64,000 nucleotides of DNA from contig JAZNDS010000056.1 in assembly GCA_045588145.1 (NCBI GenBank), forward strand, positions 27,448 through 91,447, written 5' to 3'. The position numbers were made by a program, and so were the translations under genes. Within the stretch, counting starts at the first letter, position 1. Every line of letters starts with the position of its first letter. A model generated the notes under the pieces. That model was not told the DNA's origin. It did not search any database and was given only the letters and a program-made list of their open reading frames with translations. This DNA comes from Eubacteriales bacterium. Lineage in GTDB: Bacteria; Bacillota; Clostridia; Oscillospirales; CAG-272. Of this stretch, positions 1,699-13,157 are shown one piece after another.

Positions 1699-1789
1699 AT
1701 TCGTGTTCCCGCGTGAAAAAAGAAAAAACGGCTATAAAAAAGATATTTTACCTTTTTAATCGATGGATTTGAACCCGCGCGTACTCAAT

Positions 1790-1954
1790 CACGGCGGAGC
1801 CGTGCATGGAATCCGTAACTTGTTGCGGTATGGAATTGATTGCAAAGCAATCGTATGGAATCAAGCCGCAGAGAAATGCACCTTTGGTGATGCCATACGC
1901 CTACGGCGATACCATACACGCTAACGCGTGATTCCATACCAAGCCTGCGGCTTG
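1790..1954. repeat. Array of six GTATGGNATC 10-mers (3 forward, 3 inverted) alternating with seven short unrelated hairpins; candidate structured ncRNA or protein-binding array
   Basis: Motifs at 1805, 1828, 1853 (forward) and 1889, 1908, 1930 (inverted). The hairpins between them are listed in the findings. No ORF or RBS. Confidence 0.6.
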
Positions 1955-1990
1955 AATAAAAAACGACAAATTTCTGTCGAAATTTGTCGT
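1955..1990 (-). terminator. Terminator of the tRNA-Gly/tRNA-Arg transcription unit (bidirectional shape)
   Basis: Perfect 12-bp stem ACGACAAATTTC-tgtc-GAAATTTGTCGT, followed on the minus strand by TTTTTATT. Confidence 0.8.
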
Positions 1991-2306: not shown

Positions 2307-3170
2307 ATGAACAAGAAACCTCTTTTCGGGCCGGGAGGAAACAGCGTTTCCTTTGCGGCGGCAGGGCATAAATCAACGGTAGAGGCCCCCGCCTGGCTGG
2401 CAGAGATCGGCCTCGATGCTTATGAATACGAGGCAGGGAACGGATTGACCGCCGGGGACGCGACGCTTGCCAAAATCGGGGAGGAAGCAAAACGAAACGG
2501 CATCGCGATGTCCTTTCATACGCCGTATTTCATTTCGCTTTCGGGGATCGAGCTTGAGAAAAGGCTGAAAAGCATTGAATATATTCGCACCTCCTTGCAC
2601 GCGGCCGAATTGCTGGGTGCCTCCACGATCGTTGTCCACACGGGGAGTGCTGCCAAGATCACCAGGGAAGAGGCGATGCGCTTTTGTGCCGACACCTTGT
2701 ATAAGGCCCTTGAAGCACTTCCCGATAACGGGGTAAAGATCGGCCTTGAAACCATGGGAAAGGTCAATCAGCTGGGCACCTTGGATGAGGTCATCACGCT
2801 TTGCGGTCTTTCGTCGCGCCTTGCCCCGGTCGTTGATTTCGGGCATCTTAACGCGCGTGAATGCGGAAACGGCGGCTTTAAGACGAAGGACGATTATATG
2901 CGTGTTTTCGACGCGATCGCCTGCGGCCTTGGCGATAGCTATGCCTTGGATCTACATTGTCATTTTTCCAAGATCGAATATACGGGGGCGGGTGAGAAGA
3001 AGCACCTTACCTTTGAGGACGCGGTTTTTGGTCCCGCTTATGAGCCTTTAATGGAAGCGATCGCTTCGCTTCGGGTCAATCCCACGATCATTTGCGAATC
3101 GGCGGGAACGATGTCAGACGATGCGCTTGCCATGAAGGCCTATTATCAGAAGATTACGGAGGGATTATGA
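2307..3170 (+). CDS. Xylose-isomerase-like TIM-barrel protein (AP endonuclease family 2 / endonuclease IV-like)
   Basis: 287 aa. Alternating hydrophobic strand/helix pattern, with HTPY, VVHTGS and DFGH motifs typical of the family. RBS AAGGAAG precedes the ATG. Confidence 0.5.
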   Translation: MNKKPLFGPGGNSVSFAAAGHKSTVEAPAWLAEIGLDAYEYEAGNGLTAGDATLAKIGEEAKRNGIAMSFHTPYFISLSGIELEKRLKSIEYIRTSLHAAELLGASTIVVHTGSAAKITREEAMRFCADTLYKALEALPDNGVKIGLETMGKVNQLGTLDEVITLCGLSSRLAPVVDFGHLNARECGNGGFKTKDDYMRVFDAIACGLGDSYALDLHCHFSKIEYTGAGEKKHLTFEDAVFGPAYEPLMEAIASLRVNPTIICESAGTMSDDALAMKAYYQKITEGL

Positions 3171-5478: not shown

Positions 5479-6259
5479 ATTTCAGATTTTGTCGCAGGAT
5501 CTCATAGCCGAAGATCGTAGCGGCGGATGCGGCGGAAAGGGCCGCGTTGAAGGGGCGCCCATAAGGGATCTTTACCGTGAAGTCGATCTCCTTGGCCAGG
5601 GAAGCGGAAATTCCTCTTTTTTCTCCGCCGATCACCAAAAAGATCGGTTTTTTCAGGTCGGCATCCGGCAGGGAAAGAGTGGTATCGGCATCGGCCGCCA
5701 CGATCTTGTAGCCGTGCTTGCGGAAATAGGAGGCCGCAGCCGTCGGCTCGGCAGAGAAGAGCGATAGCTCCTCCGAGGCCCCCGCGGAGGCCCTTGCCAC
5801 CACCCCGGCGGCGTTCATCCAGTTTCGCTTGGGAAGAACGATGCCGTCTACCCCTACCGCGTACAGAGAGCGCAGGGCGTATCCAAAGTTATAAGGATCC
5901 TCGATCCCCTCGATCATGCAGTAAAATCCGTTAGGAAGGGGAGAAGGAAGCGCCGTAAGCTCGGGGATATCTCTTTCGGTGCAAAAGGCCACGAGCCCTC
6001 CGTGCGTGTTTCCGACCGTAAGGGCGTTGATCTCATCCTCCGGCGCGGGAAGAAGGGAAAAGCCGTATTCCTCGGCACGGTGACGCAGATACGCAACCTC
6101 TTTTCCGATCTTCTTCAGTCGCTCTTCGGCGTAGAGGATCTTTACGATCCTGCGGTTGTTGCGGGGGGAATTGGCCACCATGGCGGAAAGCAGGGAACGG
6201 ATCGAGGTCATCCCCTCAAAAACGCTTGCGGTTGAAAATTTTTCTGCTTCTTTATGCAT
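5477..6259 (-). CDS. TrmH/SpoU-family RNA 2'-O-methyltransferase (RlmB-like)
   Basis: C-terminal SPOUT motifs (IEDPYNFGYALRS, LVIGGEKRGIS, IPYGRPFNAALSAASAATI). I trimmed the listed 330-aa ORF to MHKEAE at 6259, which has a GAAAGG RBS. Confidence 0.8.
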   Translation of the reverse strand: MHKEAEKFSTASVFEGMTSIRSLLSAMVANSPRNNRRIVKILYAEERLKKIGKEVAYLRHRAEEYGFSLLPAPEDEINALTVGNTHGGLVAFCTERDIPELTALPSPLPNGFYCMIEGIEDPYNFGYALRSLYAVGVDGIVLPKRNWMNAAGVVARASAGASEELSLFSAEPTAAASYFRKHGYKIVAADADTTLSLPDADLKKPIFLVIGGEKRGISASLAKEIDFTVKIPYGRPFNAALSAASAATIFGYEILRQNLK

Positions 6260-6320
6260 GATGGTCGTTGGCCTTTCATAGGATGTAATAACGGAAATTC
6301 CGTAGGGAGGCAGTAAGGAT

Positions 6321-6584
6321 ATGCTATATCGCGAACAAAGAGAACGCTGTGAGGTTTTAGCGGAATACTTGATCGAAAACAAAGCCACGGTGCGAAGTGC
6401 GGCACAGCATTTCAATATCAGCAAAAGCACGGTACATAAGGATCTTACGATGCATTTACCCGTCATCAACCCGATTTTGTATCAGATGGCCAAAAAGGTG
6501 TTGGAGATCAATAAATCGGAACGGCATCTGCGGGGCGGGGAAGCTACACGCATCAAATACCTGCAAAAGAAGAAGGATGCGTAA
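6321..6584 (+). CDS. spoIIID: Stage III sporulation protein D (mother-cell transcription factor)
   Basis: 87 aa. The runs KATVRSAAQHFNISKSTVHKDL and ERHLRGGEATRIKY match the SpoIIID HTH and basic C-terminus. Confidence 0.9.
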   Translation: MLYREQRERCEVLAEYLIENKATVRSAAQHFNISKSTVHKDLTMHLPVINPILYQMAKKVLEINKSERHLRGGEATRIKYLQKKKDA

Positions 6585-6592
6585 GCGGCCTT

Positions 6593-7297
6593 CTATTGCG
6601 GATGAAAAAGAAGATGCGTCCGCCGGGCCAGGGCAAGGAGCGTGCGCTTGGATATTCCTTCGGGAAGCGGCTCGGGAAAGAGAAGAGGCGGACGGCTTTT
6701 TGCGTTATGCCCGTTTGAGCCGAGAAGGATCTCCTTTCCTTCGCTTATCTTGCGGAAAAGAAGGAAGGCAAAACGACTGTCAGAGAGTGCGTGCGCGCTG
6801 ACCTGGAACAGGGAAGAGGGAAGCGAAAGCAAGCGGTCGAACTCCTTTTCGCTATAGAAGAGGTACGGTCTTTCTATATGGCATAGCAGCGGCCGCAGCT
6901 TTCTTTTTTGAATAAGAAAGGCCAATTCCTTCATAATATCGGGGGTGAGCCTATCCGAAATTGGAAGCGATAAAGGGAGAATATTCGTTTTGGGAATGCA
7001 CAAAGAGGGAAGGGACGGCAGCGATGAGAGTCCGCTCGTCAAAACGGCTTCTGCCGAAAGATAAAACCCGAAATGATGCGCTTTTTCGCCTAAAATCTCC
7101 TTTAATTTTGCATAGGACAAGCGCCTTTTGATGAGAAAAGCGTCTATCGTTTCGCGGTCCGCATCAAAACGCGGGGTAAGGACCGCCGCGCGGACCCCAT
7201 TGGCATAAAGAAGATCGAACATTCGCTCAGATTCCCATGGGCGGGCAGGGCCGTTATCCATACCGGGCAGTAAATGAAGGTGTATATCGGTAAACAT
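6593..7297 (-). CDS. CpsB/YwqE-like PHP-domain protein (tyrosine-phosphatase fold, possibly degenerate)
   Basis: It starts MFTDIHLHLLPGMDNGP and has CHIERPY and GSNGHNAKSRPP, which correspond to CpsB motifs. Some metal ligands are substituted (see findings). Confidence 0.6.
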   Translation of the reverse strand: MFTDIHLHLLPGMDNGPARPWESERMFDLLYANGVRAAVLTPRFDADRETIDAFLIKRRLSYAKLKEILGEKAHHFGFYLSAEAVLTSGLSSLPSLPSLCIPKTNILPLSLPISDRLTPDIMKELAFLIQKRKLRPLLCHIERPYLFYSEKEFDRLLSLPSSLFQVSAHALSDSRFAFLLFRKISEGKEILLGSNGHNAKSRPPLLFPEPLPEGISKRTLLALARRTHLLFHPQ

Positions 7298-7638: not shown

Positions 7639-8070
7639 ATGAAATTGAAACTGCGCTCCCTGACCGCTACGAATAAAGGAAAGCTTCTGGCCCTTGCTTC
7701 CGCGGTCGCTTCCGAATACGCCATTCAGCACGCAGCGGACGTCATTCCGCCTGCTTACCCCTGCGATAACGAGCGGCTCGTCGTTATCTTCTTTACGGCC
7801 GGCAACAGCTATCAGCAGGCCTTCGAGATCTTCTGCAAGAATCTGAAGAAGGATAACGCCCAGCACGTTGCGCTCGTTGTAGACGGTACGCCCGAAAAGG
7901 CCGCCCCGGTTATCGAGTGGATCCGCAGCGCCGGCTGCCATTTCCATGAAAACATTCTTTACGTCAACGGTGGGCTCCCCTTTAAGTTTATGAAGAAATA
8001 CACCGAGGATGAAAAGAAGCAGGTATTCGATTGGATCGACGCCACGATCGAAGCTATCAAAAAGGCTTAA
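7639..8070 (+). CDS. Hypothetical protein (possible flavodoxin-like fold)
   Basis: 143 aa from the ATG preceded by GGAGGA. No motif recognised. The antisense ORF 7462..7947 looks spurious. Confidence 0.55.
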   Translation: MKLKLRSLTATNKGKLLALASAVASEYAIQHAADVIPPAYPCDNERLVVIFFTAGNSYQQAFEIFCKNLKKDNAQHVALVVDGTPEKAAPVIEWIRSAGCHFHENILYVNGGLPFKFMKKYTEDEKKQVFDWIDATIEAIKKA

Positions 8071-9650: not shown

Positions 9651-11312
9651 TTAAACCCCTTCGGGGGCACGGCAATGGTCGTCTGTCAGGTCGCTGGCGT
9701 AGTAAATGCTGTTGACCTCGTGAAAAAGCTTCTGGCATTCCTCGGAATGTAAGGGATAACCGCCCGCCTTCACCAGCTCATAGTCGATCATGGCGCGCAG
9801 ATACAGCAAACGGAAGCGGAAATTCTTGCGGATCTTTTCGGGCATTTGCGGGTCATACTTCAGAAGGATCTCGCGAACCGTGTTGATCTCGCTTTGATTG
9901 CGGATATAGAAATGCTGCGGCTGACCTTCCTTTTTGGTGCGCTGCCTCGCAAGGCCTGTTTCGGTTAAGAGGAAGGCCTTCGTCAGCTCGTCCAGCGCTT
10001 CCCCGTCGACGCAAAATTCGAACTTAACATAAGCGCGTACGGCGTCGGCGGTATTGGGATAGAGCCCTGAATACCAGGAAAGGATGATGAATTTGTTGAT
10101 ATCCTCAAAGATGCCCTCGGAATAAGGCGTACCGCCCTCATAAAGATAGCCGGTCTTATCCAGCGTCAGCTGCAGGAATTTGGCGAGGCAGTTGACCCCA
10201 AAGCCACCGTACGGCAAGCAGGTATACATGCTGATCTCGGTAAAGTCGATAAGCTTTACCCCATCCGGCACACCCTCGTCTACGAGGCATTCGGGCATTT
10301 CACCGCGGAAGAAGAAGGATTGATAGTAGGAGGCCCCCTCCAGGCTCCCGTCGGTCAGGTGCGGATAGAATTCGTTCCATTCGTCATCGGTAAACCAGTC
10401 AAAGTGCCAGGTAGAAATAACGAATTCAACGTTCGGGAAGAATTCACGGCATACGTCCCTGAAGTGCGGGAACAGCTTAACAAAGCCGTTGGGCCCCCAG
10501 GGCTGACATTTCATACAGGTACAGCCACCCTGGTCGTAGGGACCGTAGGAAATATACTTGATGTTCAGATCCTTGAAGTACGCCAGCATCTCGCGGCGCT
10601 CCTTCAGGATCTCCTCAAGCCCCCCTTCCTTGCTGGGGCAAAGCTCGACGTGGTAATGGTCCTGCGGCTCGTGATGATAGCAGCCCTGGGCCGCCCATTC
10701 GGCGCGCAGCTCGACGGGAGAGGAGGTAAAGCCTTCATTTCCAAGGGCTACCAGCATGCCGGCAATGCCGATCTTGTTGGCGTAATGAATGATCTCGTGC
10801 AGAATGCCGACCTGCTTCTGCGCGGCCTCATCCTGCATCGAATTATAGTTATGCATATCGAACCAGACCTGCAGAACGTTACAGCCGCGAAGAGCAACGT
10901 CCTCGATGACCTCAAATACCTCGTGAAGCGGGGCAGCCTGATAGAAGTTGTAGTTATGGGTAGCAAAATACATACCGCGGAAGGAGCGCTTGGGGGTGAA
11001 ATCGATGCTTCCGCAGTAGGGGGTAAAGGCGCCCCGTCCGTCAAAGCTCGATTCAAGCAGCAGGCGGCCAAAGGCGGCGTGCAACGAAAGGTCGTTGGCG
11101 GCGCAAAGGGCAGCCCCCTTCTCGTTGGCGGTGATGGTGTAACGGTCGTTCTGATAAGAAGCGTCAACGTTCAGAGTAACAAGGTAATCGGCGGCCTCGG
11201 GCTTCAGGGAAAGACCAAGCTCTCTTTCTTCCAGGCGGCGCTTGGCAGCCTTTTCAAGAACCGAAAAGCTTTCACTTCCCATGCTTTCGTTTTGCAGATA
11301 AAAGGTTTTCAT
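9651..11312 (-). CDS. Uncharacterised TIM-barrel glycoside-hydrolase-like protein
   Basis: 553 aa with RBS AAGGAG. The N-terminus is like the GH20/GH67 accessory domain, followed by a barrel-like region with YDQGGCTCMKCQPWG. The assignment is tentative. Confidence 0.6.
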   Translation of the reverse strand: MKTFYLQNESMGSESFSVLEKAAKRRLEERELGLSLKPEAADYLVTLNVDASYQNDRYTITANEKGAALCAANDLSLHAAFGRLLLESSFDGRGAFTPYCGSIDFTPKRSFRGMYFATHNYNFYQAAPLHEVFEVIEDVALRGCNVLQVWFDMHNYNSMQDEAAQKQVGILHEIIHYANKIGIAGMLVALGNEGFTSSPVELRAEWAAQGCYHHEPQDHYHVELCPSKEGGLEEILKERREMLAYFKDLNIKYISYGPYDQGGCTCMKCQPWGPNGFVKLFPHFRDVCREFFPNVEFVISTWHFDWFTDDEWNEFYPHLTDGSLEGASYYQSFFFRGEMPECLVDEGVPDGVKLIDFTEISMYTCLPYGGFGVNCLAKFLQLTLDKTGYLYEGGTPYSEGIFEDINKFIILSWYSGLYPNTADAVRAYVKFEFCVDGEALDELTKAFLLTETGLARQRTKKEGQPQHFYIRNQSEINTVREILLKYDPQMPEKIRKNFRFRLLYLRAMIDYELVKAGGYPLHSEECQKLFHEVNSIYYASDLTDDHCRAPEGV

Positions 11313-11474
11313 ACACGATACTCCTTTTTTGGATCGTTAGGGTGAATATTTCCCCTTCATTAAAGCATACATCCCCCAAAAAATCAAGAGTTTTCCGAAA
11401 AAAAAGAAAGCCTTATCAAGTCGAAAAGAAAGAAGGAAAAAGAAAAAGAAAAGAAACAAAAGGAAACAACAAAA

Positions 11475-12093
11475 GGATGCGCATCGATGCCGGAAATGCG
11501 AACTTTTTGTCTATGCCGGGGCATAGACAGAGCTCTCACAGTCAACTTCTCCGCAAAAAAGGACACCCACAGGGGTGGCTAAAGAAGAGATATTCACCGC
11601 GGTGAATATTCCACGGCTTTCCACCGCCTCGCAAGCGGGCGGATGCTCTGCGCCGGGAATGCGAACTCTTTGTCTATGCCGGGGCATAGACAGAGCTCTC
11701 ACGGTCAACTTCTCCGCAAAAAAGGACACCCACAGAGGTGGCCTATAATATAAAAGAAGAGATATTCACCGCCGGTGAATATTCCACGGCTTGCCACCGC
11801 CTCGCAAGCGGGCGGATGCTCTGCGCCGGGAATGCGAACTCTTTGTCTATGCCAGGGCATAGACAAAGCTCTCACAGTCAACTTCTCCGCAAAAAAGGAC
11901 ACCCATAGGGGTGTCCTATAATATAAAAGAAGAGATATTCACCGCGGTGAAGATTCCACGGCTTGCCACCGCCTCGCAAGCGGGCGGATGCTCTGCGCCG
12001 GGAATGCGAACTCTTTGTCTATGCCAGGGCATAGACAGAGCTCTCACAGTCAACTTCTCCGCAAAAAAGGACACCCACAGGGGTGTCCTTTTT
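11475..12093 (-). repeat. About 3.6 tandem copies of a 172-175 bp tRNA-Ser-derived structured unit, each ending in a terminator hairpin
   Basis: The anchor AGAAGAGAT recurs at 11583, 11755, 11928 and, within the tRNA, at 12103. Copies are near-identical by eye. Each unit has four hairpins. Confidence 0.9.
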
Positions 12094-12185
12094 TGGCGGA
12101 GAAGAAGAGATTCGAACTCTTGAACCGCTTTTAACGGTTACACGATTTCCAGTCGTGCGCCCTCGACCAACTAGGCGACTTCTCC
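12094..12185 (-). tRNA. tRNA-Ser (anticodon GGA)
   Basis: 92-nt class II tRNA: acceptor GGAGAAG/CTTCTCC, anticodon loop CT-GGA-AA, long variable arm AACCGTTAAAAGCGGTT, T-arm AAGAG-TTCGAAT-CTCTT, encoded CCA. Confidence 0.93.
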
Positions 12186-12217
12186 GTATTCAATTCGTCA
12201 ATCGCTTGACCTTATGT

Positions 12218-12246
12218 AGTATACCACATCGTATTCTAAAATGCAA
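12218..12246 (-). promoter_or_regulatory. Sigma-A promoter of tRNA-Ser
   Basis: Minus strand TTGCAT-17 nt-TATACT, about 30 nt upstream of the tRNA 5' end. Confidence 0.65.
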
Positions 12247-12256
12247 GCCTTTTTTG

Positions 12257-12293
12257 AAAAAAAGAAACGGAGAAGTTGCGCTTCCCCGCTTCT
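12257..12293 (-). terminator. Terminator of the Cys-rich protein gene
   Basis: 13-bp stem (AGAAGCGGGGAAG/CTTCTCCGTTTCT, two G-U pairs) followed by TTTTTTT on the minus strand. Confidence 0.7.
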
Positions 12294-12302
12294 TTGTTCA
12301 GT

Positions 12303-13157
12303 TTAGCGTTGCTTCCCGCAACCGCAACCGCCCGAAGGACCGTTCTGACCGCCGTTCCCAAGCTCCTGAAGCGAAGGAGGGCAAAATTCGGATACGGGGA
12401 AGGCCATTTTGCGGAAAAGGCTGCAAGGATCGTCTTCTTCTGTGGCGATGCATTCCTTGTCCGGTACACAATAGTCGGCTGCCGTGATGAGATACTGGGC
12501 GGGGCGCTCAATACGGATGACCGAAAAGATGCCGAGCGTGACGTATAAGGAATTCTGCGAGTCGTCATCCACTAAGGAGCCGCAGACAGATGAAGAGATG
12601 CCGTTTGGAATATCGGCGGCGCAGCAGCAGCAATATCCGCAGCAGCATCCGGGCTCCACGACCTTGGCGGAAAGAAGGACGGGATCCACGACCTCGACGA
12701 CGCCAACGGGTACGTTGCTGGAACGGTTATCAAGATTTCCGAGATCGCAAGGGCCGACGTCGGGGTTGCTTCGATAGATAGAAACGTTGCCGACGCTTCC
12801 GTAGAGAATGACCCGCTTTTCGACGACGGCGATCCCTTCAAATTCCTGATTGCGCCCGATCCCGATGCAGGCCTCAAGCGTTACCTTGATATAAAAACGG
12901 ACGGTAACTTGGTAAAAGCCGCGATTGAACTGTACGGGCTCTACCCCGACGTAGGTCCAAAGGATCGATGCGCTTTTGGTACGGACCGAGGCGGTGCGCC
13001 CGATGATCTCCTGACCGAAGCTACCGAGATAGACGCGTACGTCCTCGTAGCAATCGCGATCACGGCAGGAATCCAACACGCGGAAGGTATCGATACAGAC
13101 GGTTTCCCTTTCCGCGGAAGAGCCGCAAGGAATGGGCGAACCTCTATTATCAGACAT
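12303..13157 (-). CDS. Cysteine-rich hypothetical protein (candidate spore coat/exosporium component)
   Basis: 284 aa with about 20 Cys by hand count. These include CCCGYCCCC and a C-terminal GGCGCG. RBS AGGGGG. It has its own upstream region after a terminator. Confidence 0.7.
   Translation of the reverse strand: MSDNRGSPIPCGSSAERETVCIDTFRVLDSCRDRDCYEDVRVYLGSFGQEIIGRTASVRTKSASILWTYVGVEPVQFNRGFYQVTVRFYIKVTLEACIGIGRNQEFEGIAVVEKRVILYGSVGNVSIYRSNPDVGPCDLGNLDNRSSNVPVGVVEVVDPVLLSAKVVEPGCCCGYCCCCAADIPNGISSSVCGSLVDDDSQNSLYVTLGIFSVIRIERPAQYLITAADYCVPDKECIATEEDDPCSLFRKMAFPVSEFCPPSLQELGNGGQNGPSGGCGCGKQR

Follow-up and report, generated by a model that had tools for sequence, protein, structure and literature searches.

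In a 64-kb stretch of a contig from a Eubacteriales genome (JAZNDS010000056.1; the whole stretch of 64,000 nucleotides is referred to below as the window), a tRNA-Ser(GGA) gene is followed on its own strand by a tandem array of short repeated units, and we find that this array belongs to a family of tRNA-trailer units that resemble the RtT repeats of the Escherichia coli tyrT locus and are absent from Rfam. The array is a real feature of the genome and not an artefact. Comparison of its copies with one another and with related loci identifies the unit as a non-coding, hairpin-rich element located directly behind the tRNA terminator and on the tRNA strand. In the explanation that we favour, to which we give a probability of about one half, the array is a local amplification of a trailer unit that would make RNA when transcription reads through the terminator of the tRNA gene.

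A tandem array of structured units behind tRNA-Ser(GGA)

ARAGORN places the tRNA-Ser(GGA) gene at 12094-12185 on the minus strand, where Rfam scores it at 57.4 bits as a tRNA (RF00005), and TRF reports a tandem array at 11489-12089 with a period of 173, 3.5 copies and 94% matches. The first-pass annotation of this locus, made from the sequence alone, had described a tRNA-Ser(GGA) followed by tandem units that each carry their own terminator, and is confirmed. The anchor AGAAGAGAT from which the array had been recognized recurs as described, with exact matches at 11583, 11755, 11928 and 12103 and thus far above the chance expectation of 0.74. The first 11 nucleotides of the unit, CGGAGAAGTTG, occur in four exact minus-strand copies, each of them opening a unit. 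No further copies of the unit were found elsewhere in the 64-kb window.

Each unit starts right after the T-run of the preceding terminator with GCGGAGAAG, the reverse complement of the tRNA 3' end CTTCTCCGC(CA), and ends in a hairpin GGACACCC-nnnn-GGGTGTCC followed by a T-run (Table 1). Its three described resemblances to the tRNA are confirmed, as are the 10-bp hairpin, the palindrome ATATTCACCGCGGTGAATAT and the extra base at the centre of this palindrome, which we find as one additional G in the second unit (u2). The terminator stems are perfect after the tRNA and after the first unit (u1) and mismatched after u2 and the third unit (u3), in agreement with the earlier description of perfect stems in the two tRNA-proximal copies and mismatches in the distal ones. 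Relative to u1, u2 is 96.5% identical and u3 90.7%; u3 lacks about 9 nt (TATATTATA-like) ahead of its terminator, and the truncated fourth unit (u4) consists of the first ~66 nt (antisense segment, hairpin H1 and the T-arm-like AGTTCGCATT) followed by unrelated sequence, a truncation point that recurs in the relative L001 (L001:18-95).

The origin of the unit in the 3' region of tRNA-Ser, likewise proposed in the first pass, is borne out. The first bases of the unit, however, had been taken for a copy of the tRNA 5' end and are better read as the antisense of the tRNA 3' end; the corresponding start in the related locus L060, TGGCGGAGAAG, includes the complement of CCA. These bases make up the right arm of a long palindrome that has its centre in the terminator loop and can also be written CTTCTCCGCCAAAAAAGGACACCC-CTGT-GGGTGTCCTTTTTTGCGGAGAAG (Table 1). 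It comprises the acceptor 3' strand of the tRNA together with CCA, then the intrinsic terminator, and last the opening segment of u1, which is antisense to the tRNA 3' end. L060, with a complete antisense copy, and L059, in which that copy continues through the T arm, show the same layout. Of the tRNA 3' tail itself, the window units keep ATCTCTTCTT alone (10 nt), and the CCA is gone.

The fold of u1 has an energy of -76.8 kcal/mol (z = -5.35 against shuffles). In this minimum-free-energy fold the antisense GCGGAGAAG pairs with the T-stem remnant as GGAGA/UCUCU, its partner having decayed; the closing helix between antisense and sense copies is weak in most relatives and strong in L059. Two further helices were considered and set aside. 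The helix ACUGUG/CGCGGU in the minimum-free-energy fold of the window unit is broken in L060, where the H4 palindrome persists, and an acceptor-like helix within each unit, which would have made it a mimic of the tRNA 'top half', has duplex energies that are mostly no better than those of shuffled sequences.

A protein-coding reading of the units was rejected, as the periods of 172, 173 and 163 are not multiples of three and the indels differ between copies; open reading frames (ORFs) that cross the units are out of phase with the repeat and not conserved. The same holds for a reading as tRNA pseudogenes: ARAGORN and Rfam see only the true tRNA-Ser, and no unit is reported even at E ≤ 10. The Rfam search that had been suggested along with the first-pass annotation thus returned no family covering the unit, even at this threshold. 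A consensus scan of 11200-12400 found promoter-like sites only 5' of tRNA-Ser(GGA), where there is one (Table 1), and none within the array itself; by eye, TTGCAT-17-TATACT lies just downstream of the scanned site.

Units of a common plan behind several tRNA genes

A pattern specific for tRNA-Ser(GGA) was used as locus anchor and returned 69 genome loci, which together with the window and L010 make up a set of 71 loci from metagenome-assembled genomes of gut and rumen Eubacteriales/Acutalibacteraceae. A structured unit is located within 450 nt of tRNA-Ser(GGA) in 23 of the 71. These units fall into several sequence classes and follow a common plan, in which a terminator is followed by an antisense copy of the T arm and/or acceptor, by hairpins, by a sense copy comprising the T arm and the acceptor 3' strand, often through CCA, and by a second terminator. 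The tRNA tail is kept through CCA in L021, L043, L049, L015, L033 and L059, for example.

For the best-sampled class of units we built a covariance model, R1, which is a product of the present analysis and not an Rfam entry. R1 finds 27 units in 12 loci from 12 species at E < 1e-4, located behind six tRNA genes: tRNA-Ser(GGA/GCT/TGA), tRNA-Ala(GGC/CGC) and tRNA-Thr(TGT). The ends of each unit match the local tRNA, with the antisense copy first and the sense copy of the 3' part last, and the T-loop of the unit usually has one extra base after GTTC. The R1 structure is a three-way junction that consists of two hairpins and of a helix in which the antisense T-arm segment pairs with the T-arm 5' strand. 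In the alignment, 93.6% of the cells are paired, compared to 75.0 ± 1.1 in shuffles (none of 500 reaches the observed value) and at most 55% in slid controls. Both sides have changed in 16 of the 22 pairs, double-change cells number 95 as opposed to 22 ± 4.4 in shuffles, and covariation extends to each of the seven pairs of hairpin 1, where up to four pair types occur per pair. G·U combinations fill 30 cells and A·C combinations 7, an excess that places the fold on the tRNA strand; across all classes, the tRNA-sense strand has the better fold in 25 of 29 units, its mean advantage over the antisense strand being 4.8 kcal/mol. By these comparative measures, the R1 fold is conserved, covarying and located on the tRNA-sense strand.

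All four window units align with R1 in register over their first 79 nt. The scores are 12.6-16.9 bits, with E values of 3e-4 to 5e-3 when 901 nt are searched and of 0.18-0.68 in a search of 1.1 Mb, and the alignment comprises the closing helix and H1, hairpin 2 being absent. Like the window units, R1 units come after the tRNA-Ser(GGA) terminator on the same strand and in the same lineage, with ends derived from that tRNA, and they show the same succession of a 5' tail (..AGTTGA..), the closing helix, a first hairpin and the T-arm-like GAGTTCG. They differ in a second, sequence-conserved hairpin (GGTTTTGCG...CGCAAAACC) that is missing in the window units, whereas the latter have additional hairpins inside the T-loop and a decayed CCA end. 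We read the window units as a derived relative of the R1 class rather than as proven members of it. The earlier picture of a private element, a tRNA-Ser gene with its arms replaced, gives way to that of a derived form within a larger group of units, which follow tRNAs of several kinds.

Away from tRNA genes, no copies of the unit were found in 540 kb of locus sequence, and a blastn search with u1 against phage and plasmid collections gave no match. The pattern GCATAGACAAAN{0,2}GTTCGCATT had four matches in JGI metagenome contigs, all of which are chance occurrences inside coding regions and were discarded; in viral contigs, the same pattern and two other unit patterns returned nothing, or the host flank at a prophage end.

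Compensatory change and copy number in close relatives

L060 is a locus of the same genus whose three flanking proteins are 93-95% identical in amino acid sequence to those of the window and which has a single unit in the same place. Between the two loci, identity is 91% in the intergenic region upstream of the tRNA, 100% in the tRNA, 71% in the first terminator, 97% in the first 70 nt of the unit and 66% in the rest of the unit. The fast-changing parts of the unit are the hairpin stems, and their pairing is retained. In comparison with L060 and L077, four double changes in H3 leave the pairing intact and H4 shows one double change and one wobble, while H1 of L077 has undergone a swap from GCC/GGC to GGC/GCC (one double change). 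The stem of the first terminator has likewise changed in sequence between the window and its relatives and still pairs.

Copy number ranges from 1 (L060) to 3.5 (window) between sister species. L077 and L001 hold partial units, and the contigs of L001, L008 and L077 all end in or beside the array. L001, which encodes a 553-residue protein 93% identical to the one downstream of the window array, has the truncated distal unit in common with the window, and its contig ends inside the array.

Recombination and insertion at tRNA-Ser(GGA)

Several loci form nested series. With T1 to T3 denoting terminators, L054 reads tRNA-T1, L042 reads tRNA-T2-body-tail-T1 and L015 reads tRNA-T3-body-tail-T2-body-tail-T1, and the same nested pattern is seen between L032 and L033. 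Judged from this order, the series look like successive additions at the tRNA, each bringing a new terminator and pushing the older units outward. Unit bodies that flank a divergent tRNA-Ser cluster are near-identical within a genome and different between genomes. In L053, the units at 7084-7211 and 7787-7914 carry each other's T-arm type, and in L049 a displaced unit fragment (3051-3163) is fused to the promoter and gene that come after the intact unit in L067. The arrangements in L053 and L049 point to inversion of the tRNA cluster via recombination between inverted units.

The 3' flank of tRNA-Ser(GGA) is also a general insertion hot-spot in this lineage (L032, L073, L084, L085). In L032, a tyrosine-integrase C-terminal motif, LGHSNTRTTLDIYTH, is found on the opposite strand ~190 nt downstream of tRNA-Ser(GGA), so that in one species at least this tRNA serves an integrated element as its site. 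A cassette of 870 bp (5500-6390, minus strand) is inserted in L073 exactly after the CCA of tRNA-Ser(GGA) and ahead of the older terminator and unit. This cassette carries its own terminator, five AATCGTTRAA direct repeats spaced ~20 nt apart and an ORF of ~175 amino acids, and AATCGTTRAA repeats also come after this tRNA in L024, L058 and L075. In the IMG/VR contigs L084 (1-660) and L085 (10900-11574), a holin-like gene is followed by part of a tRNA, of which the stretch between anticodon loop and CCA is present, and then by a terminator and a unit of the R1 type. From its layout this looks like a prophage attR site with the trailer unit of the host tRNA behind it; if so, the family would also be present behind a seventh tRNA in another host.

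Features and neighbouring genes of the locus

The coordinates of the array and of the elements around it are collected in Table 1.

Table 1. Features of the tRNA-Ser(GGA) locus in the window (positions in the 64-kb stretch)
Feature	Position	Strand	Basis or comparison
tRNA-Ser(GGA), CCA encoded	12094..12185	-	ARAGORN, Rfam; 100% identical in L060
Long palindrome CTTCTCCGCCA + AAAAAAGGACACCC-CTGT-GGGTGTCCTTTTTT + GCGGAGAAG	12054..12104	-	direct reading
Unit 1 (u1), 172 nt	11891..12062	-	R1 match 11987-12065, 16.9 bits
u1 antisense acceptor segment	12054-12062	-	
u1 hairpin H1	12017-12036	-	
u1 T-arm-like AAGAGTTCGCAT	12004-12015	-	
u1 hairpins H2/H3	11953-12005	-	
u1 palindrome H4	11935-11954	-	
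u1 ATCTCTTCTT, T-stem 3' strand and start of acceptor 3' strand	11927-11936	-	
u1 terminator	11891-11916	-	
Unit 2 (u2), 173 nt	11718..11890	-	R1 match 11815-11893, 14.8 bits
Unit 3 (u3), 163 nt	11555..11717	-	R1 match 11642-11720, 16.7 bits
Truncated unit 4 (u4)	11489..11554 (3' end ~11489)	-	R1 match 11479-11557, 12.6 bits
Pyrimidine-rich tract between array and promoter region of 553-aa gene	11424..11488	-	TRF period 21, direct reading
Promoter-like site upstream of tRNA-Ser(GGA)	12233..12260	-	consensus scan; 91% conserved stretch in L060
Inverted exact copy of CGGAGAAGTTG	12268..12278	+	3' arm of terminator of upstream 284-aa gene

The inverted 11-nt copy of the unit start that had been noted upstream of the tRNA is exact, and the chance expectation for the array copies together with this one is 0.04. 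It could descend from an inverted unit as a relic, or have arisen by chance in a purine-rich motif. The copy is conserved in L008 and L060 and lies in a terminator (12262-12295, minus strand). The gene served by this terminator encodes a protein of 284 amino acids (12303-13157, minus strand) with a CCCGYCCCC cysteine run, no Pfam match and more than 2,400 homologues, and is well conserved; it belongs to a block of conserved order comprising genes for D-Ala-D-Ala carboxypeptidase and glucose-6-phosphate isomerase, a 134-residue ORF and the 284-residue gene. An exact-protein look-up of two flanking ORFs gave no record. The flanking genes place the window in an uncultured gut/rumen lineage of the Eubacteriales/Acutalibacteraceae.

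On the other side, an ORF of 553 amino acids without Pfam match (9651-11312, minus strand) lies between the array and an aspartokinase gene. It is present in L001 and absent at that position in the same-genus L060, and its homologues elsewhere are found in a cluster with LacI, CBM9 and metallo-beta-lactamase-fold genes. A single close relative is syntenic for this gene, its contig ending in the array, and distant homologues have another context; the ORF looks like a recent insertion at the window locus. A CT-rich stretch similar to the pyrimidine-rich tract at 11424-11488 comes after the tRNA terminator in L018. Elsewhere in the window, an array of short hairpins with TATGGnAT / TTCCATAC spacers (1780-1960, minus strand) is located directly 3' of the terminator of a tRNA-Gly/tRNA-Arg pair (1995-2150). 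It matches no Rfam family at gathering score, and similar arrays come after tRNA-Ser(GGA) in L016, L027 and L080.

Possible origin and function of the array

In the reading that we favour, transcription of the units would start at the tRNA promoter and read through the terminator, which is proposed since they have no promoter of their own. In favour of an RNA are the covarying fold on the tRNA strand, the annotation of the similarly built RttR in E. coli as a small RNA, and the Gut-1 RNA candidate that takes the same promoterless slot in L045. The transcript would fold as RNA, with its 3' end at the next terminator, and where the tRNA-identical tail and its CCA are intact it could be trimmed by the enzymes of tRNA 3' maturation, as for RtT of E. 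coli. Unequal recombination, with the repeated terminators and the copies of the tRNA tail as partners, would expand and contract the arrays, and the tRNA-matching ends of the units might be upheld by gene conversion or recombination with the neighbouring tRNA.

A number of observations weigh against this proposal. A strong intrinsic terminator (8-9 bp GC-rich stem, T6) precedes every unit, and therefore distal copies would rarely be transcribed; an array of many copies also makes little sense as a means of RNA dosage. Copy number varies from 0 to 3.5 among close relatives, and many units, those of the window included, have lost the acceptor/CCA tail, so that any function is dispensable. Most units pair their 5' antisense acceptor segment with their own 3' tail no better than shuffled sequences do. 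The match of the window units to R1 is weak, with E = 0.18 when 1.1 Mb are searched, and the R1 statistics are not exact, as the sequences are related and their alignment was fitted to the structure of the model, which leans the counts towards it. Covariation and strand bias are, moreover, also expected of an element that folds as single-stranded DNA.

This last point leads to the explanation that we regard as possible, though distinctly short of even odds, namely that the unit is a selfish or recombinational repeat acting at the level of DNA, and that no RNA product matters. Flanked as it is by direct copies of the tRNA tail, a unit could leave as a loop and enter again at a tRNA T-loop, through homologous or microhomology recombination, and would in this way pass between tRNAs and build up arrays, its hairpins acting in single-stranded DNA or being kept perfect by template switching at palindromes. 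The nested series described above resemble successive insertions of this kind at the tRNA. The junction right after GTTC in the T-loop, usually with one extra base, is found behind four tRNA species, and recombination between units is apparent from the near-identical bodies within genomes, the T-arm swap in L053 and the fragment in L049. It would also fit that H1 of the window looks like an inverted duplication of neighbouring sequence, that hairpin stems change faster than the flanks (66-71% versus 91% identity with L060), that copy number is variable and distal copies are decayed, and that a terminator is placed ahead of every unit. However, the orientation of the units is always that of the tRNA, and the wobble pairs favour the transcribed strand. 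We know of no enzyme that acts on such a unit, and copies off tRNA genes were found neither in the 540 kb of loci nor in phage and plasmid collections. The analogous elements RtT in E. coli and sX4 in Xanthomonas are, furthermore, detected RNAs (sX4: PMC3300014).

The insertions at tRNA-Ser(GGA) invite the further suggestion that the units are scars of integrase-mediated events, left after internal deletion of phages or islands that had used the tRNA 3' half, which we consider unlikely. That the tRNA serves as an insertion site is evident from the integrase C-terminus LGHSNTRTTLDIYTH in L032, the cassette placed exactly after CCA in L073 and the prophage end abutting a partial tRNA in L084 and L085, and identity with the tRNA that starts inside the T-loop is typical of many att sites. 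Yet the units are 100-200 bp long with boundaries alike in many species, they consist of covarying hairpins and hold no coding remnants, and in L084 and L085 the unit is on the host side of the att site. An integrase of one specificity would, moreover, not account for a single family behind six tRNA genes, each time with ends that match. In the window, the units measure 163-173 bp, and no recombinase gene with cargo is found between the tRNA and the displaced tail.

A still simpler view would have the array as neutral debris of a one-off tandem duplication, private to the window genome. In its favour, the copies share 91-97% identity and are more decayed the farther they lie from the tRNA, and copy number differs in L060. 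The first-pass annotation had named variable copy number together with substitutions that break the hairpins as the mark of such debris, and this mark is only half present: copy number does vary (1 against 3.5), but the hairpins are not broken, because compensatory changes have kept them. Homologous units with compensatory changes are present at the same site in L060, L077 and L001, which contradicts a private origin, and related units occur in dozens of species, so that we hold this view to be very improbable. Least probable of all, to the point of being negligible, is a role as tandem attenuators or riboswitch-like leaders of the downstream 553-residue gene, even though several structured units, each with a terminator, do stand upstream of this same-strand ORF. 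The gene has its own promoter-like region past the pyrimidine tract, is absent from that position in L060, which retains the unit, and has homologues elsewhere that come after a LacI gene and not a tRNA. In other species, units precede unrelated or opposite-strand genes; with no conserved linkage to one gene family among the unit-bearing relatives, the leader reading was rejected.

Relation to RtT, sX4 and other structured elements behind tRNA genes

RtT has for decades been an orphan curiosity of enterobacterial tyrT loci. In E. coli K-12, the tyrT-tyrV-rttR locus contains 3.1 copies of a 178-bp repeat that end in AATCCTTCCCCCACCACCA, the tail of tRNA-Tyr starting inside the T-loop, and rttR is annotated as small RNA RttR. 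Transcription from tyrT continues into the repeats and stops at a rho-dependent site. The first-pass annotation had drawn the parallel to tyrT, and it proves closer than was known there: the Rfam consensus of RtT (RF00391) is closed by a helix between antisense and sense copies of the tRNA-Tyr 3' half (GgGaaGGAU / AUCCuuCcC), followed by single-stranded ccaCCACCA, and has hairpins between the T-arm 5' half and the tRNA-Tyr tail. As in the window, RtT units stand in tandem directly behind a tRNA gene and on its strand, they contain a copy of the tRNA 3' end whose identity begins inside the T-loop (AATCC...CCA), and their hairpin body sits inside the T-loop. The plan is shared by the Clostridial units at large, and by those of the window type most of all. 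RtT and the window units differ in the tRNA (tRNA-Tyr versus tRNA-Ser) and in the host (Enterobacteria versus Clostridia); RtT units end with the tRNA 3' end from T-loop through CCA whereas the window units have no CCA tail, and the latter, unlike RtT, have a strong intrinsic terminator ahead of every unit. RF00391, with a gathering score of 45 bits, has no match in 11300-12400 at E ≤ 10 or in five related loci at E ≤ 5, while the four E. coli units, as positive control, score 132.9-137.5 bits. In the opposite direction, R1 has no match in E. coli, and an nhmmer search with the E. coli unit gave none either. On the evidence of these comparisons, the window units are built like RtT without being members of RF00391. 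Literature searches on tRNA-linked repeats and RtT returned nothing beyond annotation-level mention of rttR.

The sX4 family of Xanthomonas (RF02223) has been detected as RNA (PMC3300014). Its model begins with a part resembling tRNA-Ser, to which are added a hairpin and, farther downstream, a segment whose pairing partner is the T-stem/acceptor 3' strand, and the window aligns to all three parts, with the antisense start of u1 paired to the tRNA 3' strand. This alignment is sub-threshold, scoring 35.9 bits for the window, mostly from the tRNA itself, and 32.7-40.5 bits for its relatives, as compared to a gathering score of 70. The borders of phages and islands, like the window, show a displaced copy of the tRNA tail downstream of an intact tRNA, but here the DNA between the repeats consists of 100-200 bp of conserved, covarying hairpins without integrase or cargo.

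The same position behind a tRNA is also used by Gut-1, a published non-coding RNA candidate (PMC2864571): in L045, a Gut-1 RNA (RF01706, 88.6 bits) is located at 2759-2835, a few bases after the tRNA-Ser(GGA) terminator and too close to it to leave space for a promoter. The main text of the describing paper does not mention a linkage of Gut-1 to tRNA 3' flanks (PMC2864571). Look-alike arrays of hairpins with GTGAAAT spacers come after the tRNA in L019, L022, L073 and L079. The stretch just 3' of tRNA terminators thus appears as a collecting place for structured RNAs and elements.

Whether RtT, sX4 and the Clostridial units are all instances of one general class of structured elements on tRNA 3' ends is doubtful in our view. 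Such a class would combine inverted and direct copies of the tRNA tail, a portable homology via which it could spread from tRNA to tRNA, with use of the tRNA promoter and tRNA-maturation enzymes to yield a stable RNA. By analogy, it could be likened to a bacterial counterpart of tRNA-derived SINEs (short interspersed nuclear elements) or of 'genomic tags', and the target of its RNA might be tRNA maturation or the 3' fragments of tRNAs.

The comparison carries the RtT architecture into a distant phylum, behind at least six tRNA genes and in dozens of species, with strong covariation, and turns a one-off into a class with comparative data. Two questions become testable on this basis, namely whether tRNA terminators leak on purpose, feeding trailer RNAs, and how the element ends come to match the tRNA ahead of them. 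For annotation it matters that the units break short-read assemblies, as seen at the contig ends of L001, L008 and L077, and that they resemble partial tRNAs. The window array is a variant of the known but obscure RtT-like tRNA-trailer repeats, and it represents a family that is itself undescribed.

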